Part shown: piece by piece, positions 41,486 to 60,809 of the stretch | How the letters are laid out: every line of letters starts with the position of its first letter | How positions within the stretch are numbered: the stretch's first letter is position 1 | Source of the DNA: an uncultured Actinomycetes bacterium | Lineage (GTDB): Bacteria; Actinomycetota; UBA4738; HRBIN12 | Direction: 5' to 3' | NCBI GenBank assembly: GCA_963794065.1 | Contig: CAWCDA010000057.1 | Coordinates: 13,634-77,633, forward strand | DNA length: 64,000 bases | The notes under the pieces: generated by a model | The model's database searches: none | What the model saw: the letters and a program-made list of their open reading frames with translations, nothing else | Told to the model about the DNA's origin: nothing | Made by a program: the position numbers and the translations under genes

Positions 41486-43750
41486 ATGGTCGGCTGGCTT
41501 GCCCAGGAGGGGGGACCGATCCAGGCGGTCTTCGGTTCGTTCGAAGACACCGCGCTGTGGGTGATTTTCGGCATCTCCCTCGTCGCGCTGCTGTTCGCGT
41601 GGTACCTCGTGCGCGATGTCCTGCGCGCTCCCGAGGGCACCGACAAGATGAAGGAGATCGCCAAGGCGATCCAGGAGGGCGCGAGCGCCTACCTCTCTCG
41701 CCAGTTCCGCACGGTGGCCGTGTTCCTCATCGTGCTGGCCGTCGTCATCTTCTTCGTGCTGCCGGTCCCCGCGTTCGCCACTCACTCCGAGGCGTCGATC
41801 CGGTTCGGGCGCTCGATCGCCTTCATCCTGGGCGCCTTCTTCTCGGCGGCCACGGGGTATATCGGCATGTGGCTCGCAGTCCGGGCCAACGTCCGCACGG
41901 CCAACGCCGCGCGTGAGTCCGGCCTCAAGCAGGCGATGCGGATCGCGTTCCGCTCCGGCGGCGTGGCCGGCATGTTCACGGTCGGGCTCGGTCTGCTCGG
42001 CGCCGTGGCGATCCTGATCATCTACAAGGCCGACGCCGCCAGCGTGCTGGTTGGCTTCGGGTTCGGCGGCGCCCTGCTCGCGATGTTCATGCGGGTCGGC
42101 GGCGGCATCTTCACGAAGGCGGCCGACGTGGGCGCCGACCTCGTCGGCAAGGTGGAGCAGGGGATCCCCGAGGACGACCCGCGCAACGCCGCGACGATCG
42201 CCGACAACGTGGGCGACAACGTCGGGGACTGCGCCGGCATGGCGGCGGACCTGTTCGAGTCCTCCGAGGTGACGCTGATCGCGTCGCTGATCCTGGGCGC
42301 CGCCGCGTACGCGGGCTCGCCGCAGGGCGCGATCATCGGCGTCATGTTCCCGCTGTTCGTCCGGGCGATCGGCGTTGTGACCTCGATCATCGGGATCCTC
42401 GCCGTGACGCCGCGCTCGGAGAACGAGCACGGCATGAAGGCGATCAACCGCGGCTTCTTCGCCTCGGCGATCGTCTCCTCGATCGCGGTGCTGGTGCTGT
42501 CGGCGCAGTACATGGACAGCTACAAGCCGGCGATCGCCGTGATCATCGGTCTCGTGCTGGCCTCGGTGATCCAGGTGCTCACGCAGTACTTCACGGACAC
42601 GAAGTACCGCCCGGTGCAAGAGATCGCCGAGGCGACCGTCACCGGTCCGGCCACGACGATCCTGTCCGGCTTCTCGATCGGCCTCGAGTCGACCGTCTGG
42701 TCGGCCTTGATCGTGGGCGCCGCGATGATCAGCTCTTACTTCCTGGGCGGCAACGACCCGCGCCTGGCGCTGTACTTCATCTCGCTGACCGGCATGGGCA
42801 TGCTCACGACGGTCGGCGTGATCGTCTCGATGGACACCTTCGGCCCGATCTCGGACAACGCGCAGGGCATCGCGGAGATGTCGGGCGAGTTCGAGGGGCG
42901 GCCCGCGGAGATCCTGACCGGTCTCGACGCGATCGGGAACTCCACGAAGGCCATCACGAAGGGCATCGCGATCGCGACCGCCGTGATCGCCGCGACCTCG
43001 CTCTTCGGCTCCTTCGAGGAGGCGCTGCGAGCCGCCGGATTCGACTTCCAAGGCATCCGCGTCGACCGGCCGAACGTGCTCGTTGGCCTGCTGCTCGGCG
43101 GCTGCGTCGCGTTCCTGTTCAGCTCGCTGGCGATCCGCGCGGTCGGGCGCGCCGCCGCGCAGGTCGTGGTCGAGGTGCGCAAACAGTTCCGCGACCACCC
43201 GGGGATCATGGACTACACCGAGAAGCCCGACTACGGCGCCGTGGTCGACATCTGCACGAGGACCTCGTTGCGGGAGCTCACCACGCCGGGCCTGCTGGCG
43301 GTGCTCGCGCCGCTGATCGCCGCCTTCTTCTTGGAGGCCGAGGCGCTCGGGGCGTTCCTCGCGGGCGCGATCCTGACGGGCCAGTTGCTGGCGGTCATGC
43401 TGTCGAACTCCGGCGGCGCGTGGGACAACGCGAAGAAGTTCATCGAGGACGGGCACTTCGGCGGCAAGGGCTCCGAGAGCCACAAGGCCGCGGTGATCGG
43501 CGACACCGTCGGCGACCCGTTCAAGGACACGGCCGGCCCGGCGCTGAACCCGCTGATCAAGGTGATGAACCTGGTGGCGCTGCTGATCGCGCCGGTGGTC
43601 GTGGCGCACGCCGACGACATCGCGCTGCGCGCGGCGATCGTCGTGGTCGCGGCCGCGGTCCTGGGCGTGATGATCTGGGTGTCCAAGAACCGCACCTCGG
43701 GCCTCGAGGACGACTTCGCGGCCGCCAAGGCCGGCGCCACGGCTCCGTAG
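41486..43750 (+). CDS. hppA: membrane-bound H+-translocating pyrophosphatase, K+-independent type
   Basis: ATG at 41486 after AGGAGG, inside ORF 41255..43750. Motifs DNVGDNVGDCAGMAADLFES and GDTVGDPFKDT. GNSTKAITKG has Lys at the position that marks K+-independent enzymes. Confidence 0.95.
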   Translation: MVGWLAQEGGPIQAVFGSFEDTALWVIFGISLVALLFAWYLVRDVLRAPEGTDKMKEIAKAIQEGASAYLSRQFRTVAVFLIVLAVVIFFVLPVPAFATHSEASIRFGRSIAFILGAFFSAATGYIGMWLAVRANVRTANAARESGLKQAMRIAFRSGGVAGMFTVGLGLLGAVAILIIYKADAASVLVGFGFGGALLAMFMRVGGGIFTKAADVGADLVGKVEQGIPEDDPRNAATIADNVGDNVGDCAGMAADLFESSEVTLIASLILGAAAYAGSPQGAIIGVMFPLFVRAIGVVTSIIGILAVTPRSENEHGMKAINRGFFASAIVSSIAVLVLSAQYMDSYKPAIAVIIGLVLASVIQVLTQYFTDTKYRPVQEIAEATVTGPATTILSGFSIGLESTVWSALIVGAAMISSYFLGGNDPRLALYFISLTGMGMLTTVGVIVSMDTFGPISDNAQGIAEMSGEFEGRPAEILTGLDAIGNSTKAITKGIAIATAVIAATSLFGSFEEALRAAGFDFQGIRVDRPNVLVGLLLGGCVAFLFSSLAIRAVGRAAAQVVVEVRKQFRDHPGIMDYTEKPDYGAVVDICTRTSLRELTTPGLLAVLAPLIAAFFLEAEALGAFLAGAILTGQLLAVMLSNSGGAWDNAKKFIEDGHFGGKGSESHKAAVIGDTVGDPFKDTAGPALNPLIKVMNLVALLIAPVVVAHADDIALRAAIVVVAAAVLGVMIWVSKNRTSGLEDDFAAAKAGATAP

Positions 43751-43757
43751 CCTGCCG

Positions 43758-44117
43758 ATGGGCGCGCTTCGTCGCTGGCTCGTGCGATTGACCGAGACCG
43801 ACGAGACGCGGCTGGACGCCGAGATCCGCGAGTGGGCCGAGGCGATCCCCGGCACGGTGCGCATCGGCGTCGCCCCCCTGCGCGAGCGGGTGAAGATCGC
43901 CGGGGTGATCCGCCGAATGACCGTCTTCCCGATGGCGGACAACGAGTCGTTGGAGTCCGTCGTGTCCGACGGCACCGGTGAAGTCGTGGTCCGCTTCATG
44001 GGGCGCCGCGCGATCAGCGGGCTCACGCTGGGCTCCCGGGTCGTCGTCGAAGGCGTGCTGGGCGAGCACCACGGCCACGTCCAGATGATCAACCCCCGGC
44101 TCGAGCTGACCGCCTAG
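43758..44117 (+). CDS. OB-fold domain protein (actinobacterial Trk-neighbourhood family)
   Basis: ORF 43758..44117, starting 7 nt after hppA. Segments VKIAGVIRRMTV...GTGEVVVRF...VVVEGVL. Confidence 0.65.
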   Translation: MGALRRWLVRLTETDETRLDAEIREWAEAIPGTVRIGVAPLRERVKIAGVIRRMTVFPMADNESLESVVSDGTGEVVVRFMGRRAISGLTLGSRVVVEGVLGEHHGHVQMINPRLELTA

Positions 44118-44145
44118 ATCGGGCGCGTCGGCGTAGGCTCGGACC

Positions 44146-45333
44146 GTGGGAGCGAACGGTGCAGCAGCGCCGGAGCGGGGGGTCGAGTCGGTCGAGGCCC
44201 TGATCGGGCACGACGTCGTCACGGAACCGACGGCGCCGCCCGCGTGGACGCGGGCCGAGGCCACCGCCGCCAAGCGCGCGTCGCTGCGGGCCTACCTCGG
44301 GGCGGCGCCCGGCGTCGGCAAGACCTACGCGATGCTGTCCGAGGGCCGGCGTCGCGCCGATCGCGGGACGCGCGTCGTCGTCGGCTGCGTCGAGACGTAC
44401 GGCCGTCCGCGCACGGTCGACATGCTGCAGGGGCTCGAGCAGGTCCCGCCTCGCGCCGTGTCGTACCGGGACGTCGTGTTCGACGAGCTCGACGTGGACG
44501 CGGTCCGCGCCCGCGAGCCAGAGGTTGCACTGATCGACGAGCTCGCCCACACGAACGTGCCGGGAGCGGGGCGCGCCAAGCGATGGGAGGACGTGGTCGA
44601 TCTCCTCGCCGCTGGCATCGAGGTGATCACGACCGTCAACATCCAGCACCTGGCGAGCCTCAACGACGTGGTCGCGGATGTCACCGGCGTGCGACAGCGC
44701 GAGACGGTCCCCGATTGGATGATCGAGCTTGCAGATCAGATCGAGCTCGTCGACATGTCCCCGTACGCGCTGCGGCGCCGGATGCTGCACGGCAACGTCT
44801 ATCCCGACCCTGCGAAGGCTGAGATCGCCTTGCAGCGGTACTTCACCACCGACAACCTCACCGCCCTGCGCGAGTTGGCGCTTATGCGGGTCGCGAACCA
44901 GGTCGATGAGACCTTGCTCTCCCGCTGGGCAACGGGCCGCGCCCTCGAGACGCGGGAGCGCGTGCTGGTCTGTGTCTCGAACCGCGGCTTCGCGGACGAT
45001 CTCGTGCGGCGCGGCGCGCGGATCGCACAGCGCGCACGGGGGGATCTCCTGGTGGTGCACGTGCGCGAGCGCACGGACGCCGACACGTCGGCGTGGCTGC
45101 TCGAGCTGGCCCAGCTCGTCGCCGACGTCGGTGGCGAGTTCCATGTGATCGACGACGACGATGCGGTCAGCGGCGTCCTGCATTTCGCCTATGCGCAGTT
45201 CGTCACGCAGCTCGTGGTGGGGGAGTCGTTGCGGTCGCGCGTCCGGGAGCTGCTGCGCGGCTCGTTCGTGAACGAGTTGATCCGCACGGCCGAGGCGATC
45301 GACATCCACGTCATCGCGCGACGCGAGCGCTGA
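44146..45333 (+). CDS. kdpD: free-standing KdpD N-terminal sensor domain + Usp domain protein (no membrane or kinase part)
   Basis: ORF 44146..45333. Walker-A-like GAAPGVGKTYAML, then VVGCVETYGR, IDELAHTN, TTVNIQHLASLNDVV and LTALRELALMRVA follow the N-terminal 380 aa of E. coli KdpD closely. The protein ends after the Usp-like block. Confidence 0.85.
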   Translation: MGANGAAAPERGVESVEALIGHDVVTEPTAPPAWTRAEATAAKRASLRAYLGAAPGVGKTYAMLSEGRRRADRGTRVVVGCVETYGRPRTVDMLQGLEQVPPRAVSYRDVVFDELDVDAVRAREPEVALIDELAHTNVPGAGRAKRWEDVVDLLAAGIEVITTVNIQHLASLNDVVADVTGVRQRETVPDWMIELADQIELVDMSPYALRRRMLHGNVYPDPAKAEIALQRYFTTDNLTALRELALMRVANQVDETLLSRWATGRALETRERVLVCVSNRGFADDLVRRGARIAQRARGDLLVVHVRERTDADTSAWLLELAQLVADVGGEFHVIDDDDAVSGVLHFAYAQFVTQLVVGESLRSRVRELLRGSFVNELIRTAEAIDIHVIARRER

Positions 45334-45643
45334 TCCCGCGCGTTCGAAGCGATCGCTCGATCCGCCGGGCCTCCCGACGGCCGCACGCCAAGAGCACGCG
45401 GTCCCGCGCCGCCACGCTCTCGACGCCGTCGGCCGCCGTGCTCGCCAGGATCGCGTCGAAGACGATCGCACGCTCGCGCGCCAACGCGAGGGCTTCGTCG
45501 ACGACGAGCTGCTGGGTCTCGGTCAGCGGCCAGCCGAGCGCGATCACCACCAGGGCGATCGAGCCGTCCACGTCGTCGGGGAACAGCTGCGTCGGTTCCC
45601 GTACCGTTCGTCCGAGAACGAGCACCGTGCGTTGCAGTGCCAT
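45311..45643 (-). CDS. hypothetical 110-aa protein translationally coupled to kdpC
   Basis: ATG at 45643 lies 2 nt after the kdpC stop (TGACCATG). Third-position GC is high throughout. Sequence MALQRTVLVLGRTVREPTQLFPDDVDGSIALVVIALGW.... It appears in the track only as the tail of ORF 45311..46057. Confidence 0.55.
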   Translation of the reverse strand: MALQRTVLVLGRTVREPTQLFPDDVDGSIALVVIALGWPLTETQQLVVDEALALARERAIVFDAILASTAADGVESVAARDRVLLACGRREARRIERSLRTRGISARVAR

Positions 45644-45645
45644 GG

Positions 45646-46233
45646 TCACGTTCGTGGCGCCACCTCCTCCAACGCGACGTTCAGTTCGAGGACATTGACC
45701 CGTGGCTCGCCGAAGACACCGAGGGTCGGCTCCTGCGTGTGCTGGTCGATCAACGTCTCGACCTCCTCGATCGGGAGGCCCCGGTTCGCCGCGATCCGGG
45801 GCGCCTGGAACCGGGCGGCCTCCACCGAGATGTGCGGGTCGAGCCCGCTCGCCGAGGTGGTGAGGAGGTCGGCCGGGATCGTGGCGGCCGTGAGGTCGGG
45901 CACGTACGGCGATTCGAGGGCGACGATGGCCGCGGCGCGCTGCTCGATGTCGTCGGCGAGTTGCCTGGACCGCGGCCCCAGGTTCGACCCGCCGGAGGTG
46001 GACGCGTCGTCCTCGACGGCAGACGGCCGCCCGTAGAACCAGGACGGACCGTCCCACTGTTGGCCGATCAGCGAGCTGCCGACGGGCTGCCCGTCGACGT
46101 CGACGAGTGATCCGTCCGCTCGATCGGAGAACGCCGCCTGTGCGACGGCGGTCATCACCAGCGGGTATGCCAGGCCGGTCAGCGCGGCCAGCAGCAGGGT
46201 GGCGACGACGGCGCGAACGATCGTCCGGATCAC
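45646..46233 (-). CDS. kdpC: K+-transporting ATPase subunit C
   Basis: ORF 45646..46233. Motifs [24 protein letters not shown] and ASGLDPHIS. Confidence 0.9.
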
Positions 46234-48290
46234 GGGAAGTGCACCGCCCCGAGGATCATGTCGATCAGCTTGATCCCGACGAAGGGCACGATGAGCCCGC
46301 CGAGACCGTAGATCAGCAGGTTGCGGCGCAACAGGCCCTCGGCGCCCAGCGGGCGATAGCGAACGCCCCGCAGCGCGAGCGGCACCAGCAGCACGATGAT
46401 CAACGCGTTGAAGATGACCGCCGAGAGGATCGCCGATTCCGGCGAGGTGAGGTGCATCACGTTGAGCTGATCCAGCGCGGGGTACGTCGCGACGAACATC
46501 GCCGGGATGATCGCGAAGTACTTCGCCACGTCGTTCGCGATCGAGAAGGTCGTGAGCGCGCCGCGGGTGATCAGGAGCTGCTTGCCGATCTCGACGATGT
46601 CCATCAGCTTGGTGGGGTTCGAGTCGAGGTCGACCATGTTGCCGGCCTCCTTCGCAGCGGTGGTGCCGGTGTTCATCGCAACCCCGACATCGGCCTGCGC
46701 CAACGCAGGAGCGTCGTTCGTGCCGTCGCCCGTCATCGCGACGAGCACCCCGCCCTCCTGCTCCTTCTTGATCAGCGCCATCTTCGTTTCCGGCGTCGCC
46801 TCCGCAAGGAAGTCGTCGACGCCGGACTCCTGGGCGATCGCGGCCGCGGTCAGCGGGTTGTCGCCGGTGATCATGATCGTGCGGATGCCCATCGTCCGCA
46901 GCTGCCCGAACCGCTCGGCAAGTCCGTCCTTGACGATGTCCTTGAGCTCGACGACCCCCATGGCCACGCGATCCCTGGCCACCGCCAGCGGCGTGCCGCC
47001 GGCTGTGGCGATCCGCTCCACCGCGTCGGACAACTCGGCGGGCAGCTCGGATCCGGACCAGGCGGCGACCGCATCCACGGCGCCCTTGCGGATCTCGACG
47101 CCCTCCAGATCGACGCCGCTCATCCTCGTCTGCGCGGTGAACGGCACGAAGCGCGCGTGCGTTTCCAACAACTCGTGTTCACGTAGGTTGAACCGCTCCT
47201 TCGCGAGCACGACGATCGAGCGCCCCTCCGGTGTTTCGTCGGCGAGCGATGCCATCTGCGCGACCTCGGCCAGCTCGCGCTCCTCGACGCCCGGAGCGGG
47301 GATGAACGCGACGGCGTGACGGTTGCCGAGCGTGATCGTGCCGGTCTTGTCGAGCAGCAGCGTGGAGACGTCGCCCGCGGCCTCGACGGCGCGCCCGCTC
47401 ATCGCCAACACGTTGCGCTGGACGAGCCGGTCCATCCCCGCGATCCCGATCGCCGACAGCAATCCGCCGATCGTGGTGGGGATCAAACAGACGAACAGCG
47501 CGATCAGCACCGCGTCGCTGACCCGGCCACCCGCGTAGATCGCGAACGGCTGCAGCGCCACCACCACGATCAAGAAGATGATCGTGAACTTCGTCAGCAG
47601 CAGCGACAGCGCGATCTCGTTCGGGGTCTTCTGGCGCTCGGCGCCCTCGACGAGGCGGATCATCCGATCGATGAAGCCCTCGCCCGGTTCGACGGCGATC
47701 CGGATCTTGACCCAATCCGACAGGACCTTCGTGCCCCCGGTCACGGCGGAGCGGTCGCCGCCAGATTCGCGGATCACCGGGGCCGACTCGCCGGTGATCG
47801 CCGACTCGTCCACCGATGCGATGCCCTCGACGACCTCCCCGTCACCGGGGATCAGCTCCCCGGCCGACACCATGACGACGTCATCGCGCCGGAGGTCCGA
47901 GGCGGAGACGAGCTCCTCACCGACGCCGTCGGTGAGCCGGCGCGCGACGAGGTCCGCCCGCGTCTTGCGCAACGACTCGGCCTGCGCCTTGCCTCGGCCC
48001 TCGGCCATCGCCTCGGCGAAGTTCGCGAACAGGACCGTGAACCACAGTCCGAGGGCGATCGCGGTGTCGAACGCGATCGGTCCTCCCTTCGTCGCGTCGA
48101 CGACCAGACGGATCGTGACGACGGCCGACACGACTTCCACGACGAAGATCACGGGGTTCCGGACGAGGGTGCGCGGGTCGAGCTTGCGAACGCTGTCCAC
48201 GATCGCGGTCTGCACGATCGCGTGGTCGAACAGCGGCCGGGCGCGAACGGTCGGTGTGCTCTCCACCTGCGGGGGCGCCGCGATCGCCAT
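46230..48290 (-). CDS. kdpB: K+-transporting P-type ATPase subunit B
   Basis: MAIAAPPQ starts at 48290 inside ORF 46230..49805. Motifs [20 protein letters not shown] and ITGDN. The start shares one nucleotide with the kdpA stop (TGATG). Confidence 0.95.
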
Positions 48291-49957
48291 CAGGTCAGCC
48301 CTCCCTGCAGGTGCTCGACGATCGGACCGAGCGCCAGCGCCGGTAGGAACGTCAACGCGCCGATGATCACGATGACGCCGGTCAGCAGCCCGGCGAACAG
48401 TCCGGTGTCGGTGCGCAGCGTGCCCGCCGTGAACGGCACGGTCCGTTCGCGCCCGACGCTCGCGCCGAGGGCGAGGGCCGCCAGGAGCGGGACGAAGCGG
48501 GCCACGAGCATCGCGATCCCGCCGGTGATCGTGTAGAAGGGCGAGCTCGCGGTCAGCCCGGCGAACGCTGAGCCGTTGTTGTTCCCCATCGACAGGTAGC
48601 CGTACAGGATCTCGCTGAACCCCTGGGGCCCCGTGTTGAGCCGACCCGCGAGCCCGGCCGGCAGCACCACCGCCAACGCCGCGAAGGCGAGCACCACCAA
48701 GAACGGCACCAGGATCGCGATCACGACGATCTTCACCTGCCGGGCCGCGATCTTCTTCCCGAGGTATTCGGGGGTGCGGCCCACCATGAGACCACCGATG
48801 AAAACGGCGATGACGACGTAGAAGAGCATCCCGTAGAGGCCGCTGCCGACCCCGCCGAACACGACCTCGCCGATCCCCATGTTGAACATCGGCGCGAGCC
48901 CTCCGAGCGCCTGATAGGAGTCGTGCATCGAGTTCACTGAGCCGTTGGACGCGGCCGTGGTCGCGACCGCCCACAGGGCCGATGCGTCCGTGCCGATGCG
49001 GACCTCCTTGCCCTCGAGGTTCGGGGCGGCGGCCGAGATGCCGGCCGCCTGCATCGCGGGGGTGGCGACCCGCTCGCCCGGCACGGTGATCGCGAGCCCG
49101 GCGATCAGCAGGATCCACATGGCGGCGAACAACACCCAGCCCTGGCGGACGTTGCCGACCCACTTGCCGAACGTGTATGTGAGTCCCGACGCGATCCACA
49201 GGATCGCGAACAGCTCCAGGATGTTCGACAGCGGCGTCGGGTTCTCGAACGGATGCGCCGAGTTCGCGCTGAAGAATCCCCCGCCGTTCGTGCCGAGCTG
49301 CTTGATCGCCAGCTGGCTGGCGACGGGGCCGCGCGCGATCAGCTGGGAGAACCCTTGCAGCCCCGTGACCTGCTGTGACTCGGCGAGCGTCTGCACCACG
49401 CCCTGGCTCATCAGCACGATCGCGAACAGCACCGAGAGCGGTAACAGGAGGTAGAGAACCCCCCGGATCAGATCGCGCCAGAAGTTGCCGACATGGTCCG
49501 TCCCGGTGCGGGTGAACCCGCGGATCAGCGCGACCAGCACGGCGACCCCGACAGCGGCGGACACGAAGTTCTGGAACGTGAGCGCCACCATCTGCGTGAA
49601 GTAGCTCATGGTCGTCTCGCCGCCGTAGGCCTGCCAATTGGTGTTGGTCATGAAGCTGGCGGCCGTGTTGAAGGCGAGATACGGGTTCACGCCCGGGAGT
49701 TGCTCCGGGTTGAGGGGCAGGTGCAGCTGGGTCCGCAGGATCACGAACACGAAGGCCATGCTGACCGCGCTGAACCACAGCAGCGAGCCCGCATACCGGC
49801 CCCACGACTGTTCCGCGTTCGGGTTCACGCCGAGCACCCGATAGCAGAGCCCTTCGAGTCTGCCGACCCGTTCGCGCGAGTAGATCCGGTACATGTACGC
49901 GCCCAGCGGCGGCGTCAGCAGGATCAGCACCAGGAGGAAGACGGCGATCGTCGCCAT
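48290..49957 (-). CDS. kdpA: K+-transporting ATPase subunit A
   Basis: [14 protein letters not shown] starts at 49957 inside ORF 48290..50080. Motifs [17 protein letters not shown] and NNGSAFAG. Confidence 0.95.
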
Positions 49958-50046
49958 CAGAACCGCTCCGGGTGGATCAAGACGTAGACGAGATACACGA
50001 GCAGGGCGGCGCTGACACCCAGCTCGAGGACATCCGCGATGCTCAT
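49957..50046 (-). CDS. kdpF: K+-transporting ATPase subunit F (29 aa)
   Basis: Below the ORF-track length cutoff. Hand translation gives [29 protein letters not shown]. Its stop overlaps the kdpA ATG (TGATG). Single TM helix, and the HPERF end resembles known KdpF termini. Confidence 0.75.
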
Positions 50047-50126
50047 ATCCGGTCGAACCAGCGGACGAGCGCGAACGCAAGCGCGAAGAAGCCGACCGTG
50101 ATGGCGATGACCCAGACGTCCCACAT
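50043..50126 (-). CDS. 27-aa hydrophobic micropeptide upstream of kdpF
   Basis: Hand translation gives [33 protein letters not shown] sits 8 nt upstream of the ATG at 50126. Its stop overlaps the kdpF ATG (ATGA). Confidence 0.5.
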   Translation of the reverse strand: MWDVWVIAITVGFFALAFALVRWFDRI

Positions 50127-50272: not shown

Positions 50273-51757
50273 ATGGGCTCCGCCACCACGTTCGAGCTGC
50301 TTCGGTCGCCCGCCGGTATCCGGCGACGGTCGATCGGGTACCTCATCGCGGTCCTCGGGCCGGTGCTGGTCGTCGCGATCATGTTGCCGTGGCGAGATCG
50401 GATCGAGCCGCTGACGATCGGCTTCGCGTTCCTCGTGGTGGTGGTCGTCGCCGCGGCGGTCGGACGGCTCGGCCCCGGCGTCCTCGCCTCGCTCGTCTCA
50501 TTTCTGGCGTTCAACTTCTTCTTCCTGCCGCCCTACGACACGTTCGTGATCGCGCGCGCGGAGCATGTCGTCGCGTTGTTCGTGTTCCTCGGGCTGTCGA
50601 TCCTGATCTCGTTGCTGTACGCGCGGGCGGTCGAGCGCGCGGACGCCGCCGAGGCTAAGGAGCGCGAGTTGCGGACCCTGCAGGAGCTCAGCCGCGACCT
50701 CGTCGTGCGCGGACCGGGAGAGGATGCCTACCGGGAGCTGTTGGCCGACGTGGTCGCGCGTTTCGCGTTCGACGCGGGAGCCTTGTTCGTCACGGATGCA
50801 ACCGCCGGGCTCCAGGAACGGGTCGTCGTGGGGGCGCCGATGGGCGCGATCTCGCCCTCGTGGAACCCCGCCGACCCCGGGCGGGCCCCGGAGCGCCTGC
50901 CGCTGTCGGTCGGGGCGCGCACCCTCGGGTTGATCGTGCTGACCGGCCAGCGTCCTGCACTGGACGGCTCGGAGGTGCGGGTCCTCCGGGCGGTGTGCGA
51001 TCAACTCGCGCTCGTGTTGGAGCGAGATCGGCTGCTGCGGAAGGCCACCGATACGGAGATCCTCAAACAGACGGAGACGGCTCGACGCAACGTGCTGGCG
51101 GCGGTCTCGCACGACCTCCGCAGCCCCCTGGCCGCGATCAAGGCCTCGGTGACGGATCTCCTCGATCCCGAGGTGGTCCGCTCTGACGCGGATCGAGGCG
51201 CGGTCTTGCTCGCGGTGGACCACGAAACGGATCGGCTCGATGCGCTCGTCGCGAACCTCCTGGACATGTCGCGCATCGAGGCGGGCGTGCTCCAGGCCCG
51301 CCCGGAGACGGTCGATCTCGCCGACGCGGTGACCGGGGAGGTGGACGCCGCGTCCGTTCGATGGCCGGCGGTGCGGATCGAGCCGTCGTTCTCGGCAGGC
51401 GACACCACGGCGCGGGCCGATCCGGTGCTCCTGTTGCGCGTGCTTTCCAACTTGCTTGATAACGCCGCCCGGGCGGCGGAGCGTGGCGGCGACGGGCCCG
51501 TGGCGGTCGAGGTCGCGCCGCAGGGCGACCGGGTGGCGGTCCGCGTCGTCGATCACGGCGCCGGCCTCGACGCCGCCGCTCGCAGACAGTTGTTCCTGCC
51601 GTTCGCCCGCCTCGATGAGCGCGAAACGACGCGCGGGCCCGGGCTCGGCCTCGCGATCGCGAAGGGGTTCCTCGATCTGATGGACGGACAGCTGTGGCTG
51701 GAGGACACGCCCGGGGGCGGCGCGACGTTCGTCTTCTCGTTGCCGGTGGCGACATGA
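50273..51757 (+). CDS. KdpD-type sensor histidine kinase lacking the N-terminal KdpD/Usp domains (DUF4118 + linker + HisKA + HATPase_c), paralog 1
   Basis: ATG at 50273 inside ORF 50174..51757. Four TM helices including FLAFNFFFLPPYDTF, an H-box AAVSHDLRSPLAAI, and the G-boxes. Confidence 0.85.
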   Translation: MGSATTFELLRSPAGIRRRSIGYLIAVLGPVLVVAIMLPWRDRIEPLTIGFAFLVVVVVAAAVGRLGPGVLASLVSFLAFNFFFLPPYDTFVIARAEHVVALFVFLGLSILISLLYARAVERADAAEAKERELRTLQELSRDLVVRGPGEDAYRELLADVVARFAFDAGALFVTDATAGLQERVVVGAPMGAISPSWNPADPGRAPERLPLSVGARTLGLIVLTGQRPALDGSEVRVLRAVCDQLALVLERDRLLRKATDTEILKQTETARRNVLAAVSHDLRSPLAAIKASVTDLLDPEVVRSDADRGAVLLAVDHETDRLDALVANLLDMSRIEAGVLQARPETVDLADAVTGEVDAASVRWPAVRIEPSFSAGDTTARADPVLLLRVLSNLLDNAARAAERGGDGPVAVEVAPQGDRVAVRVVDHGAGLDAAARRQLFLPFARLDERETTRGPGLGLAIAKGFLDLMDGQLWLEDTPGGGATFVFSLPVAT

Positions 51758-52446
51758 CGAGGATCCTCGTGGTCGACGACGAGCCGCAGATCCGCCTGGC
51801 GGTCGAACGGTCGTTGCTGGCCCGTGGCTACGATGTGCAGGTGGCCGGCGATGGCGCCGAGGCCCTCGATCTGGCGGCCGCGCGGCTGCCCGATCTCGTC
51901 ATCCTCGACCTCAACATGCCTGTGATGGATGGTCTCGAGTGCTGTCGACGGCTCCGGACGTGGACGGCTGTGCCCATCCTCGTGCTGTCGGTGCGCGAAG
52001 ACGAGCCGGACAAGATCGCGGCGCTCGATCTCGGCGCGGACGACTACCTGACCAAGCCCTTCGGCACCGGCGAGCTGCTGGCGCGCGTTCGCGCGCTGCT
52101 GCGTCGGGGCGAGGGCGCCGGGGCTCGTCCCTCGTTGTACCAACTCGACGGTGTCACGATCGATGTCGCGGCGCACCGCGTGACACGCCGCGACGAGGAC
52201 GTGCATCTCACGCGGACAGAGTGGGGATTGTTGGAGGCCTTCACCGCCCAGTCGGGGAAGCTGCTGACGCACCGATGGCTGCTCGAACAAGTGTGGGGCG
52301 ACACGTACGGCGAGGACGTCGAGGTGCTCCGCGTGTTCGTGAGCCAGCTCCGGCACAAGGTTGAGCCCGATCCGCGACGTCCCCGCGCGATCGTCACGGA
52401 GCCCGGCATCGGATACCGCTGGAACCTCCGCCCCGTCGACGGCTGA
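51754..52446 (+). CDS. kdpE: KdpE-like OmpR-family response regulator, paralog 1
   Basis: ATG at 51754 overlaps the kinase stop (ATGA). Motifs ILVVDDEPQIR, DDYLTKPF and EPGIGYRW. Confidence 0.9.
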   Translation: MTRILVVDDEPQIRLAVERSLLARGYDVQVAGDGAEALDLAAARLPDLVILDLNMPVMDGLECCRRLRTWTAVPILVLSVREDEPDKIAALDLGADDYLTKPFGTGELLARVRALLRRGEGAGARPSLYQLDGVTIDVAAHRVTRRDEDVHLTRTEWGLLEAFTAQSGKLLTHRWLLEQVWGDTYGEDVEVLRVFVSQLRHKVEPDPRRPRAIVTEPGIGYRWNLRPVDG

Positions 52447-52455
52447 GCCGCTCGC

Positions 52456-54877
52456 TCAGACCGCGGCCGGCGCCGCGGGCGTGCGCACGCCGCCCTGCAC
52501 GTAGTACGGGATGTCCGCGACGTCGACGTGCGCGTAGCGCCCCAGCGCCCGCTGGATCTTCCGGCTGGTGCGATCGTGCAGCAGCCGCTGGCGGATCTTC
52601 GGGTAGTCGCGGCGCGGCATCACCGCGGTGACCTCGCTCGTGTCCGAGGCCATCGCAACCACGTAGCGCTCGAGCGCCCGCGGGATGTCGCGGTCCCAGC
52701 ATTCGATCACGTCAAGCGGCACCGGCGCCTGGAGCTCCATCCAGCGCCGCGCGAGTCGCGCCGCGCGATCGGGGTCCGCCGCGGCGTGCACCGCCCGGAT
52801 CGAGGTGGCGCCCAGCTCGAGCCCGTAGGAGAGGGCCTCCAGGGTCGCGCGGTCCAGCTTGTCCACGAGGACAACGACCTCGTGGGTGCCGCGCGTCGTG
52901 AGCCGCACCACCGGTCGGCCCTCCTCGTCTCGCTGGAGAGGGTGGACCCCTTCGGGGTGATCGCGCACGAGGGTGACCCGGACATGCGCGTAGGGGAGCA
53001 GCGCGCGGTGCAGCTTCGCCCCCGCTCGCCGATCCGAGAAGCTCTCCGCCGCCGTCCGCGAGTGCGGCACAGGCAGCAGCACGATGACCTCGCGATCCGC
53101 TCGCTCGTAGGCGGCGAGGAACCCCGCCAGTCTCGCCGCCTCGTCTCCGCCTCCGCGGACGATGCGTAGGGGGATCTCCCCGAGGCCGGCGAGCGCCCAC
53201 GCCTGCGAGAGCGCGCGCGCTCGGTCGGCGTCCTCCTCCAGGTGAACCGCGATCGTGCGCTCGCATCGGATCGTGCGGGCGTACTGCAGGGCGTGCACGG
53301 TTTTGGGATCGAGATCGTCCACCAGCAGGATCGCGATCGGCGCGCGCCCGCTGGGCGGCGAGAAGGCGGCCAGATCGCGCTCCAACTCGACGGTCTCGTG
53401 TTGGTACTGCTTGTTCATCCGTACCAGGAGCCACACGAGCAACGGCACCAGGATCAGGATCGCCCAGGCGCCCTCGGCGAACTTCGTTCGGGCGATGATG
53501 ACCAACACGATCGCCGTCGCCACGGCGCCGGCGCCGTTGATCAACAGGCCCACCCGCCAGCCCTCCTCGCGGAGCCGGATGTGGCGCTTGGCCATCCCCG
53601 CCTGGGACAGCGAGAAGGACGTGAACACCCCGATCGCGTAGAACGGGATCAACTTCGTGACGTCGGCGTGGAACGCGATCACGAGCGCGATCGCCGCCGC
53701 CGACAGCGCGATGATCCCGTTCGAGAACACCAGCCGGTGCCCCCGCGTGGTGAACTGGCGCGGCAGGAAGTCGTCGCCCGCGTGGAAGTTGGCCAGGCGA
53801 GGGAAGTCGGCGTAGGCGGTGTTGGCTGCCAGCACGAGGATCAGCATCGTGGCGATCTGCAGCAGCGCGAATGCCGCGTGGCCGATCGGTCCCGATCCGT
53901 ACACCGCGCGGCCGATGTCCGCGACGACCGTCGATGTGCCCGTGAAGTCCGGCCGGATCTGCAGCTTGGCCGCCAGATAGGAGATCCCGAGGAACATCGT
54001 CGACAGCAGGAGGCCGAGCACGACGAGGGTTTGGCGTGCGTGCTTCCACTCGACGGGCTTGAAGGCGGGCACGCCGTTGGAGATCGCCTCGACCCCGGTC
54101 ATCGCGGTGCTGCCGGACGCGAGGGCGTGCAGCGCGATGAACATCGGCACCCCGGCGAGGAAGCCGAGACCTGCGCCGGTGGCCGTCACCGCCTGTTGCG
54201 GCGCCACGAGCGAGCCGGTGAGCACGCGGAGGCCACCGACGACGAGCAGAGACATGATGCAGGCGATGAACACATAGGTCGGCGCCGAGAAGATCTTGCC
54301 GGACTCGCGCACGCCGCGAAGGTTCCCGAAGGCGATCAGACAGATGAAGGCCACCGCCATCTCGACGCGGAACGGTGCTGGTCGAGGGCACCAGGGCGAT
54401 CACCGCGGCCACGCCGGCGGAGACCGAGACCGCGACGGTCAAGACATAGTCGGTCAGCAGCGCAACGCCCGCCACCTGCGCCGGGATAAGCCCGAAGTTG
54501 TCCTTCGTGACGATGTAGGCCCCGCCGGCGGAGGGATAGGCCTTGATCGTCTGGCGATAGCTGAACACCAGGATCGCCAGCACGCCGACGATCGCGGCCG
54601 ACAGCGGCACGATCAGGGTGAATGCGACGGCGCCGACGCCCGCGATGAACAGCGTCTTGAGCATCTCCTCGGTCGCGTAGGCAACCGAGGACAACGCGTC
54701 GGAGCTGAAGATCGCCAAGGCCGCGACCTTGCCGAGGCGTTCGTGCGCCAGGTTGGCGGTGGGGAGCGCCCGGCCGAGCGCGGCTCGCTTTGCCGCGTAC
54801 CCGAGCCCCCGCGGGAGAGGACCGCGGCCGTTGGGAGCCGCGACGTCGCTCGAGGGAGTATCGACATCGGTACGCAT
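52456..54877 (-). pseudogene. KimA-like APC-superfamily K+ importer with tandem C-terminal cytoplasmic domains, frameshifted
   Basis: The N-terminal 165 aa (MRTDVD...SSDALSSVAYATEEML...YRQTIKAYPSAGGAYIVTKDNFG...AGVAAVIALVP) are in the frame of ORF 52712..54937. The rest (FRVEMAVAFICLIAFGNLRG...TGVEAISNGVPAFK...) is in the frame of ORF 52456..54360. The frame switches by 1 nt at about 54375-54390. Confidence 0.7.
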
Positions 54878-54929: not shown

Positions 54930-56345
54930 GTGACCACCGTGGACCATGCCGCCGTGCCGACGACCGAGCGACTAGGTGTCGCCGTACCCGGGTGGCGGGT
55001 GCCGGCGGCCTACGTGATCGCTACGGTCGGGGCCGGTGCGCTGGCGGCCGTCATGCTGCCGATCCGCGACGATCTGACGCACACGATCGAGGCGTTCTTG
55101 TTCTTGGTGCCCGTCGTGGCCGCCTCGTGGCTGGGCGGTGTGTGGCCCGGCGTGGTGGCCGCGATCGTTTCCTCTGCCTTGTTCAACGTCGGCTTCCTGC
55201 CACCGTACGGAACATTCGATCTCGAGCGGCCCGAGTACCTCGGCGCATTCCTGGGATTCCTCGCGCTGTCGCTCGTGATCTCGTGGCTCGTCGGTGTGGC
55301 GCGGGAGCGAGCGAGCGCGGCCGAGGATCGGGAAGCCGAGGTCCGCCTGCTGTTCGACCTCAGTCACGTGCTGGTGTCCGAGCGCGCGGAAGGGCTGACG
55401 CCCGCGCTCGCGCGCGCCGCGGAGCGGCTCGGGTTCGTCATGGCGACGGTGCGGGACCCGGACGACGTTGAACGTGGCGGGCTCGACATCCCTTTGCGGG
55501 TTGGCGAGGCCTCGTTCGGATCACTCGTCTTCGTGGGTACGCGGCCCCCGCTAACGACCGCCGAGACGCGGGTCGTGCGCACCTTCGCCGACGAGGTGGC
55601 CCTTGTCGTGGCGGGCGATCGCCTGACGGCCGAGCTCCGAGAGGCGGAGCTGTATCGCGCCACGGAGGACATGCGCCGCTCCCTGCTTGCCGCCGCCTCG
55701 CACGAGCTGAAGAGCCCGGTGGCGGCCATCACGGCGTCGGTCACGGACGTGCTCGGCCGCGATCACCTCGATCTCGACGTCGTGCGTGAGGTCCTGGAAG
55801 ACGTCCGGGCGTCCACGAGCCGCCTCGAGCAGCTGATCACGAACCTGCTGGATATGTCGCGGATCGAATCGGGCACACTGGTCGCCCGGCGCGAAACGGT
55901 GTACCTCGACGATCTCATCGGGCCCGCCGTCGACGGTGTCCGGGGGCGATGGCCCGGCGTCGATATCAGCGTCGACATCGCCGAGGATGCCGACCGCGTC
56001 CGAGGCGATGCGTTGTTCGTCGAGCGCATCGTCACCAACCTGGTCGAGAACGCGGCTCGAGCGGTCCGCGGTGCCGCGGATAGAAGGATCGAGCTTCGCG
56101 GCTCGCGTGAGGGGGATACGGTCGTGCTCCTCGTGGTCGATCATGGTCCCGGGCTCAACTTCGGCGACCACACGCTGCTGTTCACGCCGTTCTACCGCCT
56201 GCAGGAGGGGTCCCCACGGCTGGGCGCCGGGCTCGGGCTGGCGATCTGCAAGGGCTTCACGCTCGCGATGGACGGAGAGATCTGGGCCACGGACACGCCG
56301 GGGGGCGGCGCGACGTTCGGCGTGCGGATCCCGGCCGCCTCATGA
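54930..56345 (+). CDS. KdpD-type sensor histidine kinase lacking the KdpD/Usp domains, paralog 2
   Basis: ORF 54930..56345. DUF4118-like TM block (ALFNVGFLPPYGTF) and H-box AAASHELKSPVAAI. Confidence 0.85.
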   Translation: MTTVDHAAVPTTERLGVAVPGWRVPAAYVIATVGAGALAAVMLPIRDDLTHTIEAFLFLVPVVAASWLGGVWPGVVAAIVSSALFNVGFLPPYGTFDLERPEYLGAFLGFLALSLVISWLVGVARERASAAEDREAEVRLLFDLSHVLVSERAEGLTPALARAAERLGFVMATVRDPDDVERGGLDIPLRVGEASFGSLVFVGTRPPLTTAETRVVRTFADEVALVVAGDRLTAELREAELYRATEDMRRSLLAAASHELKSPVAAITASVTDVLGRDHLDLDVVREVLEDVRASTSRLEQLITNLLDMSRIESGTLVARRETVYLDDLIGPAVDGVRGRWPGVDISVDIAEDADRVRGDALFVERIVTNLVENAARAVRGAADRRIELRGSREGDTVVLLVVDHGPGLNFGDHTLLFTPFYRLQEGSPRLGAGLGLAICKGFTLAMDGEIWATDTPGGGATFGVRIPAAS

Positions 56346-57034
56346 GCGGCCCGGTGGTGCTGGTCGTCGACGACGAGCCACAGATCCTGCGTGCGGTCGA
56401 GCGCACACTTTCGGCTCGGGGTTTCGTTGTGCACACGGCAAGCGACGGGCGGTCGGCCGTCGGCGCCGTGGCCGATGACCCGCCGGATCTCGTGGTGCTC
56501 GATCTGAACCTGCCGCACCTCGACGGGCTGACGGCGTGCCGGGAGATCCGCCGCTCGAGCCGCGTGCCGATCCTCGTGCTGTCCGTGCGCGACGCGGAGG
56601 AGGACAAGGTCGCGGCGTTGGACCTGGGGGCAGACGACTATCTGACGAAGCCGTTCGGAGCGGCGGAGCTGCTGGCACGCGTCCGCGCGCTGCTGCGCCG
56701 GGCCGCCCCCGGGCCGACGGGAACGCGGTTCGTGGCCGGCGACCTCACCGTCGACGTCTCCGCGCGCGCCGTGACGCGCGGCGGCCTCGACGTGCATCTG
56801 ACGCCGACCGAGTGGCGGTTGCTGGAAGCGCTCGCCGGGGCGCCGGGGGTGCTCCGGACCCACGACTGGCTGCTCGGTCACGTCTGGAGCGAGGGCGGGG
56901 CCCCCGACGTGGAGGCGCTCCGGGTGTTCGTGAGCCAGCTCCGCGCCAAGCTCGAGGCGGATCCGAGACGCCCGCAGGTGATCGCGACCGAGCCCGGCGT
57001 CGGGTACCGCTGGCAGCTCGAGCCGCCCGGCTAG
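56342..57034 (+). CDS. KdpE-like OmpR-family response regulator, paralog 2
   Basis: ORF 56342..57034, with ATGA overlap onto HK2. Motifs VLVVDDEPQILR, DDYLTKPF and EPGVGYRW. Confidence 0.9.
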   Translation: MSGPVVLVVDDEPQILRAVERTLSARGFVVHTASDGRSAVGAVADDPPDLVVLDLNLPHLDGLTACREIRRSSRVPILVLSVRDAEEDKVAALDLGADDYLTKPFGAAELLARVRALLRRAAPGPTGTRFVAGDLTVDVSARAVTRGGLDVHLTPTEWRLLEALAGAPGVLRTHDWLLGHVWSEGGAPDVEALRVFVSQLRAKLEADPRRPQVIATEPGVGYRWQLEPPG

Positions 57035-58680: not shown

Positions 58681-60129
58681 GTGCGCGTGGCCACCGAGCG
58701 CAGGGATTCCCGCATCGAACGGATCTCGTGGCGGGCGGTCCTCATCGGGCTGGTGGCCGTCGCATGTGCTGCCCTGCTTGCGCTCTTGACCAGAGAGCTG
58801 GGGCCAGGCTCGTCGACGGCGATCTTCATGCTGGCCGTCACGATGGCCGCGGTTAGCGGCGGGATCTGGGCCGGGGTGGTCGCCGCTTTGCTCGCCTCGA
58901 TGATCTCTCCGGTGATCGAGCATCCCGACCTCGGGCTGCAGTTCGAACAGCTGCGCGACGTCATCGCCGCGGTCGTGTTCCTCGCGATCGCGGCGGTGGT
59001 CGGCCTGGTCGTGGGCAACGCCGCCGTCGAGCGACGGCGTGCGACCGAGCGCGAGCGGGAGGCCAGGCTCTTGGCCTTCCTCTCGACCAAACTGTTGTCG
59101 GGGGATGTGCCGGACCGGGTGCTCGACGAGTTCGTCGACGTCCTGCTCGTGCCCTTCGGGCTCGCCTCGTGCACCGTCCAGGTCACGCTCGACGGTCAGC
59201 CGATGTCCGCGACGGCGACCCGCGAGGGTCTCGAGCCCGGTGGACCGACCGAGCTCGTGCCGGTCGTGGTCGCGTCGATCCCGCTTGGCACGCTTTCGGC
59301 CGAACGGCCCGTGCGCGGTCGTCCGTTCACGAAGCGCGAACGTGAGCTGCTCGAGGCCGCGACCCGTCAAGCCGCCGTCGCGTTGGACCGGGCCCGGTTG
59401 GACGCCCGCGCGCGGCTCGCGCAGCTCGACGCCGAGACGAACCAGCTGCGCGCGGCGATGTTCTCCTCGGTCACCCACGACCTGCGCACGCCGCTCGCGT
59501 CGATCAAGGCCGGCGTGACGAGCCTGCTCGATCAGTCGACGACGCTTGGGGTGGAGCGGGAGCGGGATCTGCTGCTCACGATCCTGGAGGAGACCGACCG
59601 GTTGAACCGCCTGGTAGGCAACATCCTGGATCTCGCGCGGATCCGAGCGGGCGCGCTCATCCCTCGGCAGGTGCCGACCTCGGTGGACGAGGTCGCCGAA
59701 GTGGTGGTGGCGCGGATGCGCGCTCGCCTCGGCTCGGTCCGGCTTGAGCTCGCGATCGCACCCGACCTCCCCGAGATCGCTGCCGACCCGGTGCAGCTGG
59801 ACCAGGTGCTGACGAACCTGCTGGAGAACGCCGCCCGACACTCCCCGAGCGGTGGCATCGTGCGCGTCCACGTCGGCCTTGCGGAGCACGGCGTCCGGGT
59901 CCGCGTCAGCGACGAGGGCCCCGGGATCCCTCCGGAGCAACGGGAGAAGGTCTTCGAAGCCTTCTATCGTGGCCGCGAAGAGCCGGAGCGTCCGGGGAGC
60001 GGCCTCGGGCTCGCGATCGCTCGCGCGATCGTGACGGCGCACGGTGGACGCATCTGGGTCGAGGAGACGACGGGCGGCGGCGCCGCGGTGGTGTTCGATC
60101 TGCCGATCGAGGAGGAGGTGGAGGCGTGA
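58681..60129 (+). CDS. KdpD-type sensor histidine kinase lacking the KdpD/Usp domains, paralog 3
   Basis: ORF 58681..60129 (alternative GTG at 58687). Four TM helices and H-box SSVTHDLRTPLASI. Confidence 0.85.
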   Translation: MRVATERRDSRIERISWRAVLIGLVAVACAALLALLTRELGPGSSTAIFMLAVTMAAVSGGIWAGVVAALLASMISPVIEHPDLGLQFEQLRDVIAAVVFLAIAAVVGLVVGNAAVERRRATEREREARLLAFLSTKLLSGDVPDRVLDEFVDVLLVPFGLASCTVQVTLDGQPMSATATREGLEPGGPTELVPVVVASIPLGTLSAERPVRGRPFTKRERELLEAATRQAAVALDRARLDARARLAQLDAETNQLRAAMFSSVTHDLRTPLASIKAGVTSLLDQSTTLGVERERDLLLTILEETDRLNRLVGNILDLARIRAGALIPRQVPTSVDEVAEVVVARMRARLGSVRLELAIAPDLPEIAADPVQLDQVLTNLLENAARHSPSGGIVRVHVGLAEHGVRVRVSDEGPGIPPEQREKVFEAFYRGREEPERPGSGLGLAIARAIVTAHGGRIWVEETTGGGAAVVFDLPIEEEVEA

Positions 60130-60809
60130 AGGTGCTGGTTGTCGACGACGAACCGCAGATCCGTCGCGCCCTGCGCACGACCCTCGAGGCCCACGGGTAC
60201 GTCGTGGAAACGGTCGGCACCGGGGACGAAGGAGTCGTCGCGGCCGCGGGGCAGCCTCCCGAACTGATCCTGCTGGACCTCGGCCTGCCGGACATGGACG
60301 GGACCGAGGTGATCCGGCGGGTCCGGGCCTTCTCCGAGGTGCCGATCATCGTGCTGTCCGTGCGGGAGAGCCAGACGGACAAGGTCGCCGCGCTCGACGC
60401 GGGCGCCGACGATTACGTCACGAAGCCGTTCGGCATGGAGGAGCTGCTGGCACGGTCCCGGGCGGCGCTCCGCCGCCGAGGCACCGAGGAGCCAACGGTC
60501 CCGGTGCTCGCCTTCGGTGATCTGCAGGTGGATCTCGCTCGCCGCCTGGTGACGAGCGAGGAGGAGCAGGTACGTCTGACGCCGACCGAATATGGCCTCC
60601 TCGAGGCGTTCGTGACCAATCCGGGGAAGCTGCTTACCCACCAGTGGCTCCTGCGGCGTGTTTGGGGACAGGGGTACGGCACCGAGACCACGTACCTGCG
60701 CACCTACGTCCGGGCGCTCCGCAAGAAACTCGGCGACGACGCATCGGCTCCCGCGCTGATCGTGACCGAGCCGGGGGTCGGGTATCGATGGATCGCGGAG
60801 CCGAGCTGA
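60126..60809 (+). CDS. KdpE-like OmpR-family response regulator, paralog 3
   Basis: ORF 60126..60809, with GTGA overlap onto HK3. Motifs VLVVDDEPQIRR, DDYVTKPF and EPGVGYRW. Confidence 0.9.
   Translation: MKVLVVDDEPQIRRALRTTLEAHGYVVETVGTGDEGVVAAAGQPPELILLDLGLPDMDGTEVIRRVRAFSEVPIIVLSVRESQTDKVAALDAGADDYVTKPFGMEELLARSRAALRRRGTEEPTVPVLAFGDLQVDLARRLVTSEEEQVRLTPTEYGLLEAFVTNPGKLLTHQWLLRRVWGQGYGTETTYLRTYVRALRKKLGDDASAPALIVTEPGVGYRWIAEPS

Follow-up and report, generated by a model that had tools for sequence, protein, structure and literature searches.

A stand-alone KdpD/Usp protein, a candidate serine kinase for KdpB, and a conserved orphan domain beside kdpFABC in an uncultured actinobacterium

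The N-terminal domain of Escherichia coli KdpD is an atypical serine kinase (ASK), which phosphorylates the pump subunit KdpB at S162 and thereby inhibits the pump when K+ is high (Silberberg et al. 2024, Nat Commun, PMC11018627). Residues 1-230 of KdpD are sufficient for this phosphorylation, and the activity needs the Walker A motif G-x5-GKT, the Walker B residues D109/E110 and the adenine-coordinating aromatic/arginine pair W39/R190, with assistance from E161 of KdpB (PMC11018627). In the work cited there, the same domain is described as modulating the histidine-kinase/phosphatase half of KdpD and complementing it in trans (Heermann 2000, reference 31 in PMC11018627), and ATP at its Walker A site as regulating the phosphatase activity (references 31 and 32 in PMC11018627). 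Here we describe a gene, kdpD-N, which encodes this part of KdpD as a stand-alone soluble protein of 395 amino acids (aa), a putative ASK for KdpB. It is located at 44146-45333 on the forward strand of a 64 kb stretch of contig CAWCDA010000057.1 from an uncultured Actinomycetes bacterium (the whole stretch analysed, hereafter the window), and is convergent with a kdpFABC operon.

Split forms of KdpD have been described in Deinococcus, Alicyclobacillus, Acidobacteriota and Chloroflexota (PMC11018627, PMC5716572). Deinococcus radiodurans has the genes kdpBAC-kdpD-N together with a divergent sensor-kinase/regulator operon (PMC5716572), and Alicyclobacillus acidocaldarius and Anabaena L-31 are cited for the same split (PMC11018627). 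The two-chain arrangement, given as 'KdpD, Usp + TM, GAF, DHpCA' (TM, transmembrane), was recorded in 140 of 5495 surveyed species, with 10 among the 1511 Actinomycetota; a further 7 Actinomycetota, including Acidimicrobium ferrooxidans and Conexibacter woesei, have KdpD/Usp only, and the survey also lists 'TM, GAF, DHpCA' kinases alone, i.e. without the KdpD N-domain (PMC11018627). Short KdpD/Usp proteins act on KdpB autonomously, without the kinase half, and predominate in species without KdpE; the short protein of Deinococcus geothermalis (UniProt Q1J2K3) phosphorylates KdpB and is stimulated by cyclic di-AMP (c-di-AMP) (PMC11018627). An earlier reading of the window from its letters and open reading frames (ORFs) only, referred to here as the original prediction, had named cyanobacteria, with a single partner, as the setting of such splits, a view that is outdated given these bacterial groups and the 10 actinobacterial species.

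The window has a GC content of ~69% and its mechanical ORF lists are therefore crowded, so third-position GC (GC3) was used to pick the real frames. The ORF at 44146-45333 has a GC3 of 0.90, and Pfam found two domains and no other in its product: KdpD (PF02702, aa 44-253, E 6.5e-85) and Usp (PF00582, aa 271-383, E 2e-6). Alignment with residues 1-400 of KdpD from E. coli MG1655 gave 145 identities in 368 aligned positions (39% identity over residues 1-385). The NCBIfam model for full-length KdpD (NF007793/PRK10490, 895 positions) matched at positions 15-375 only, with 287 bits against a cut-off of 1123. The model NF038185, a 'KdpD-like non-kinase potassium sensor', was matched end to end (positions 12-371 of 373, E 3e-107), but as the 358.9 bits are below the cut-off of 550, we regard kdpD-N as a relative of the sequences on which that model was trained, and not as a member of the family. 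A sequence search of the PDB returned the KdpD N-domain entry 2r8r as the sole match (E 4.9e-64), and the Usp part had no PDB sequence match at E < 0.01. The protein lacks a TM segment, its maximum Kyte-Doolittle score over 19 residues being 1.38, compared with 2.3-3.0 in three histidine kinases encoded nearby, and its stop codon falls at the Usp/TM1 boundary, where E. coli KdpD runs on into a linker and TM1, followed by the rest of its four TM helices and the GAF and DHp/CA domains. Both the stand-alone KdpD/Usp composition and the end ahead of any TM segment, as originally predicted, were thus confirmed.

The KdpD domain (44275-44904) carries the Walker A motif G52-x5-G58-K59-T60, the Walker B residues D131-E132 and R212, the equivalent of E. 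coli R190, all of which are invariant across kdpD-N and 116 stand-alone homologues. The position of E. coli W39 is occupied by Y61, with Y or F across the family; with that exchange, the serine-kinase catalytic residues are shared with E. coli KdpD. The target is conserved as well. The P-type ATPase subunit KdpB (46230-48290, reverse strand) was recognised by Pfam and is 64% identical to E. coli KdpB, with 22 residues around the TGES motif identical, and E169/S170 in its ITGES sequence correspond to E161/S162. The Usp domain (44956-45294) resembles the E. coli type with its RxxxR motif. A feature absent from E. coli KdpD is the clade-specific N-terminal extension of 43 aa (44146-44274) with the motif G-x-ESVEAL-x-G-[HR], which is near-invariant in 124 members of the clade; this extension could be a docking element.

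The kinase half missing from kdpD-N is encoded on the other side of the pump operon, also on the forward strand. The histidine kinase HK1 (50273-51757, with the longest ORF from 50174) has TM (DUF4118), GAF-like, HisKA and HATPase domains by Pfam, the GAF match being weak, and aligns in one stretch with positions 397-883 of the NCBIfam KdpD model; it is the counterpart of the KdpD C-terminal half. Next comes RR1 (51754-52446), an OmpR-family regulator for which KdpE was the best NCBIfam match (228.5 bits, below the cut-off of 325). HK1/RR1 are divergent from kdpF, and HK1 orthologues adjoin kdpFABC in all related loci examined. The methionine codon at 50273, giving a protein of 494 aa, is the start shared with a 90%-identical relative and leaves ~20 residues before DUF4118; the originally predicted 20-35 residues ahead of TM1 therefore hold for this start, and not for the longest one, which leaves 55. 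HK1/RR1 most probably represent the conserved transcriptional arm of the system.

A separate kinase of the TM/GAF/DHpCA type and a KdpE-type regulator beside the kdp operon are what characterises the published two-chain subclass. Since this architecture has been catalogued and the serine-kinase activity of the N-domain has been demonstrated, the system is of a known kind with a published mechanism, and kdpD-N is, by its domain composition and residues, a fairly ordinary new example of the split/short KdpD/Usp class. As in D. radiodurans, Anabaena L-31 and Alicyclobacillus, the soluble KdpD/Usp part and the membrane-bound TM/GAF/HisKA/HATPase kinase are made as two polypeptides, kinase and regulator are divergent from kdp(F)ABC, and both the Walker A/B residues and the TGES motif of KdpB are kept. 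In those systems, however, kdpD-N comes after kdpC in the same orientation and is transcribed by read-through from the pump promoter, a placement which is typical of the class but not strictly defining, whereas kdpD-N of the window lies inverted on the opposite strand. The window further differs in having a gene which we call X110 between kdpC and kdpD-N, in the position of kdpD-N behind genes for an H+-pyrophosphatase and an OB-fold protein, and in having two further pairs of KdpD-C/KdpE-like proteins nearby.

An exact look-up of the kdpD-N sequence returned no contig, and relatives were used in its place. We scanned a genome collection (best 80 of 594 matches) and read nine related loci, L001-L004 and L085-L087 together with L083 and L084, which have a fused form of the gene discussed below. 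All nine encode a KdpD-N protein beside kdpFABC and an HK1-type kinase, and 7/9 (L001-L004, L085-L087) have the same order as the window, with kdpD-N pointing at X110-kdpCBAF on the opposite strand and HK1-RR1 leading away from the far end of the pump operon. Most of the syntenic loci also have the H+-pyrophosphatase and OB-fold genes upstream of kdpD-N. Among the best 120 homologues of kdpD-N (66-100% identity), drawn from many soil metagenomes and from metagenome-assembled genomes of Actinomycetota, none has TM or kinase domains, and ~115 have a length of 320-430 aa. The comparison of fused and split forms in related genomes suggested by the original prediction was made on species representatives. 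The short form is present in the closest genomes (66-69% identity) and in some Acidimicrobiales, and the usual KdpD chain of ~850 aa in Streptomyces, Kitasatospora, Nocardioides, mycobacteria and others (48-56% identity).

We consider it probable (at about 0.65) that the locus is a split Kdp system of the published class with a KdpD/Usp chain and a TM/GAF/DHpCA chain, in which kdpD-N acts as a serine kinase on KdpB. The soluble protein would use its Walker A/B site to move a phosphate from ATP to S170 in the TGES motif of KdpB, and this phosphorylation would shut down pumps that are already in the membrane once K+ is sufficient, with the transcription of kdpFABC left to HK1 and the KdpE-like RR1. 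The two other kinase/regulator pairs, HK2/RR2 and HK3/RR3, would then be paralogous pairs belonging to neighbouring K+ uptake genes (the trkA pair and APC-type permeases), and not partners that have lost their own sensor. The original prediction was right in that the split is genuine, but its interpretation missed the published serine-kinase function on KdpB (PMC11018627). Several points weigh against kdpD-N as a kinase acting on KdpB. The change from W39 to Y61 is one of them, albeit a conservative change. The protein has neither the c-di-AMP motif of the Staphylococcus aureus type (2/5 positions) nor the K+-sensing TM/GAF domains, and as it is convergent with the pump operon, unlike the read-through in the described split systems, the logic of its expression may differ. 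Finally, a role towards HK1 could coexist with the kinase role or dominate it, since the E. coli N-domain, in the studies cited by PMC11018627, modulates and complements the histidine-kinase half.

The last of these points leads to the alternative that survives best, which we nevertheless consider clearly less likely than action on KdpB. In this alternative kdpD-N serves HK1 alone, as an input domain acting in trans. It would associate with the membrane-anchored kinase without a covalent link and adjust the kinase/phosphatase balance of HK1 towards RR1, so that the two proteins together form a two-chain KdpD and any action on KdpB is secondary. The complementation in trans and the regulation of phosphatase activity by ATP, both cited for E. 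coli, are in its favour, as is the co-occurrence of HK1 orthologues with a KdpD-N protein in every related locus examined. It is countered by the autonomous action of short KdpD/Usp proteins on KdpB without a kinase half, and their predominance in the absence of KdpE (PMC11018627), as well as by the strict conservation of the kinase-specific Walker B glutamate and of the E-S target in KdpB. Action of kdpD-N in trans on HK1 is possible from this analysis, and it and the proposed phosphorylation of KdpB are not mutually exclusive.

The signal controlling kdpD-N might be c-di-AMP, as in the short KdpD of D. geothermalis, which likewise consists of KdpD and Usp domains without TM or kinase domains. 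High K+ would lead to production of c-di-AMP, which would bind the Usp domain and turn the serine kinase on. The stimulation of the D. geothermalis protein speaks for this, and most species with a short KdpD have a diadenylate cyclase, as do 73% of the surveyed Actinomycetota (PMC11018627). However, the comparison with D. geothermalis KdpD is one of domain architecture, and the experimentally derived consensus of the S. aureus-type Usp domain, (A/G/C)242-x-S244-x-S246-x2-N249 ... (Y/F)271 (PMC8214093; an earlier motif is given in PMC4686210), is matched at only 2/5 positions in kdpD-N (C276, S278, R280, A283, H305), with the same result for the majority of the family. The KdpD Usp domain of Mycobacterium tuberculosis, also an actinobacterium, matches 1/5 positions and binds c-di-AMP with ~0.7% relative affinity, and the Usp region of kdpD-N resembles the E. 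coli RxxxR-x8 type. No diadenylate cyclase (DisA_N) was detected among the genes scanned in the window, which covers 64 kb of the genome, and an Rfam scan of the whole window gave zero matches and hence no ydaO/c-di-AMP riboswitch upstream of kdpF. We therefore regard gating by c-di-AMP as unlikely, and the lead from the Usp domain to this nucleotide in the original prediction as weak.

The original prediction had also proposed that kdpD-N could be a nucleotide-sensing hub shared by three kinases, on which it would dock as a common module. The second pair, HK2/RR2, is located at 54930-57034 (HK2 at 54930-56345), and the third, HK3/RR3, at 58681-60809 (HK3 at 58681-60129), both on the forward strand. 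As predicted, none of HK1, HK2 and HK3 has a KdpD or Usp domain by Pfam, and the best NCBIfam match of each is the C-terminal half of full-length KdpD; this, and the presence of only one kdpD-N gene in the 64 kb window, would fit a shared sensor. The kinases are nevertheless old paralogues, with identities of 42% (HK1/HK2), 33% (HK1/HK3) and 31% (HK2/HK3), and the regulators are 52-61% identical, with RR2 61% identical to RR1. In a rough neighbour-joining (NJ) tree the kinases next to kdp in L001-L003 formed a group with HK1, to which HK2 was sister, and HK3, of the older pair, grouped with kinases adjacent to APC/trkA genes in L002 and L003; the C-terminal halves of fused actinobacterial KdpD proteins formed their own clade. 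The NJ trees of kinase halves and of N-domains separate the clades, but their deep branching order is unreliable. Outside the window HK2/RR2 was found only in L085 (20837-21190), the 90%-identical nearest relative, and HK3/RR3 in only two related loci, L002 and L003; HK2/RR2 is inserted with the APC_A permease on one side and the trkA genes on the other. The KdpD-N protein and HK1 are constant across loci with one, two or three DUF4118 kinases, no sequence feature links kdpD-N to HK2 or HK3, and DUF4118 kinases without the KdpD N-domain are listed alone in the published survey (PMC11018627), which makes a hub improbable.

The reading of the split as an assembly artefact, or of kdpD-N as the decaying remnant of a broken kdpD, for which one can cite the uncultured source of the DNA and the frameshift in another gene of the window, the APC_A permease, is effectively refuted by the same stop position in >100 clusters from independent samples, the arrangement and gene order common to the related syntenic loci, the GC3 of 0.90 with invariant catalytic residues, and the distance of 5 kb to the kinase half, which lies beyond an intact kdpFABC operon.

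The pump operon is located on the reverse strand and consists of kdpF (50043-50126, 27 aa, identified by translation, with a KdpF gene called at the equivalent place in L001 and L083), kdpA (48290-49957; Pfam KdpA, E 1.7e-227), kdpB, kdpC (45646-46233; Pfam KdpC, E 1e-68) and, as last gene, X110 (45311-45643, 110 aa), which starts 2 nucleotides (nt) after the kdpC stop codon. A scan for promoters and terminators over 43400-46400 found nothing, and the operon structure is accordingly based on gene spacing only. The stop codon of kdpF is separated from the start of kdpA by ~85 nt (49958-50042), and the two genes abut in L001, L083 and L086.

X110 and kdpD-N overlap tail to tail by 23 nt, with the last 7 codons and the stop codon of X110 antisense to the end of kdpD-N, so that the tail of X110 (ISARVAR*) is encoded antisense to the C-terminus of the kinase (VIARRER*). 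In the five loci where the two gene ends were measured there is either an overlap of 20-23 nt or a gap of 3-9 nt. The convergence and the 23-nt overlap of the original prediction are hence both real, but the last ORF concerned is the 110-aa ORF at 45311-45643 and not the mechanical 248-aa ORF at 45311-46057, which prolongs the X110 frame through kdpC, out of frame with that gene, and matched no family. X110 has 47% identity to its counterpart in L001 and is recognisable in L002-L004, L086 and L087; a word-indexed search gave 31 clusters and a profile search 87 representative clusters, nearly all of 105-115 aa. No Pfam or NCBIfam family matched X110. Its AlphaFold2 model is a confident three-layer alpha/beta fold (predicted local distance difference test, pLDDT, 90.6), for which Foldseek against the PDB gave weak resemblances to HUP/PP-loop/Usp-like structures (best E 6e-3, TM-score <=0.58), and no family was assigned. 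A 307-aa gene call in L085 (11169-12092) resembles a KdpC-X110 fusion, which we rejected because the reading frame changes within the 3' end of kdpC. An assembly indel is the most likely cause, since on the same contig the H+-pyrophosphatase and APC_A genes are also broken across several frames.

In sister lineages X110 is found at the N-terminus of a single chain with KdpD(-Usp), connected by a linker (P0105, P0107, P0116, P0120, P0186 and P0187; hhalign probability 96.7%). The linker is of low complexity and ends in the G-x-ESVEAL-x-G motif that opens kdpD-N, so the N-terminal extension of kdpD-N corresponds to the linker end, and the ESVEAL-containing clade mentioned above comprises both short and X110-fused members. 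The KdpD/Usp part of the fusions is 66-67% identical to kdpD-N. The genes of P0116 and P0120 immediately follow kdpC in the same orientation, and fused forms are located at 7177-8880 of L083 and 94-1731 of L084. The fused X110-KdpD/Usp gene of the sister lineages thus occupies the placement downstream of kdpC that is typical of the class.

In view of these fusions, the convergent layout of the window is best explained as the scar of an inversion. The gene after kdpC in the sister lineages encodes X110-linker-KdpD-Usp, and in the window the linker-KdpD-Usp segment would have been inverted, so that the pump operon now ends with X110 and the kinase gene points at it, behind the H+-pyrophosphatase and OB-fold genes. 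Inversion of this segment of a fused gene would give exactly the tail-to-tail layout observed. By the NJ tree of N-domains, either the fused or the separate X110 may be the ancestral state. X110 as a conserved orphan domain that is fused to the same kinase in sister lineages appears to be new, and the existence of natural fusions suggests, by the Rosetta-stone argument, that X110 and the kinase function together. Since it is covalently fused to the kinase elsewhere, X110 may dock on it. We tentatively propose that KdpD is split here into three modules with X110, an alpha/beta domain of 105-110 aa, as the third. X110 would be made together with KdpFABC and the kinase from a convergent, separately controlled transcript, and docking of X110 on the kinase, perhaps at ESVEAL, would couple pump abundance to kinase activity, with X110 as adaptor or anti-kinase. 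Antisense control could be added by convergent transcription over the 23-nt overlap.

Upstream of kdpD-N on the same strand are genes encoding NhaA, the H+-pyrophosphatase and the OB-fold protein. The last of these (43758-44117, 119 aa, with a weak PF01336 match) is 8 nt downstream of the H+-pyrophosphatase gene and 28 nt upstream of kdpD-N, with which it is probably co-transcribed. Its position is kept in L001, L003, L004, L085 and L086, and the OB-fold gene travels with K+ regulatory genes in many Streptomyces, where it is found between kdpE and trkA-trkA-APC (e.g. L013, 13352-13696). On the other side of the pump operon, RR1 is followed by a frameshifted APC-type permease, HK2/RR2, two trkA genes, HK3/RR3 and a second APC-type permease. 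The same set of neighbours (the OB-fold gene, two trkA genes and an APC-type permease) is present in the Streptomyces cluster kdpFABC-kdpD-kdpE-OB-trkA-trkA-APC, with N-domains 48-56% identical to kdpD-N. We therefore regard the window as containing a conserved K+ gene cluster of actinobacteria in rearranged form, in which KdpD, one chain of ~850 aa in Streptomyces, has been split in the lineage of the window and the genes rearranged.

The frameshifted permease (APC_A, 52456-54877, reverse strand) is encoded in two frames with a break near 54397-54401, matching residues 12-143 and then 148-255 of its paralogue APC_B, and is either a pseudogene or the result of a sequencing indel. The region 34054-63186 is a dense cation-homeostasis island, with two genes of the Na/Ca-exchanger family, NhaA, the H+-pyrophosphatase, kdpFABC, two trkA genes and the three KdpDE-like pairs; its two APC-type permeases are 650-780 aa long and have long C-terminal extensions without a family match. 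Further features of the window are two genes for class III adenylate/guanylate cyclases (14360-15607 and 18774-22028, forward strand), of which the second encodes a protein of 1084 aa that combines a cyclase domain with a zinc ribbon and an AAA_16 ATPase domain, and another histidine kinase (HisKA + HATPase; 26124-27353, forward strand) with ~190 N-terminal residues without a family match. No tRNAs were found in the window.

The split of KdpD by itself adds little to what is known, as it extends a catalogued architecture to abundant uncultured soil Actinomycetota. It does supply >100 natural KdpD/Usp sequences of the stand-alone kind, with invariant serine-kinase residues, which supports pump inactivation, and not input to the histidine kinase, as the conserved job of this domain. 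The system could help to address how stand-alone kinases are switched in lineages without a recognisable c-di-AMP site or K+ sensor. The inverted kinase gene, uncoupled from the pump promoter, the added X110 module and the lack of a recognisable c-di-AMP site are modest departures from the described cases. X110, an unannotated domain and a candidate regulator of KdpB phosphorylation, is the only local feature that we judge to be worth following up.

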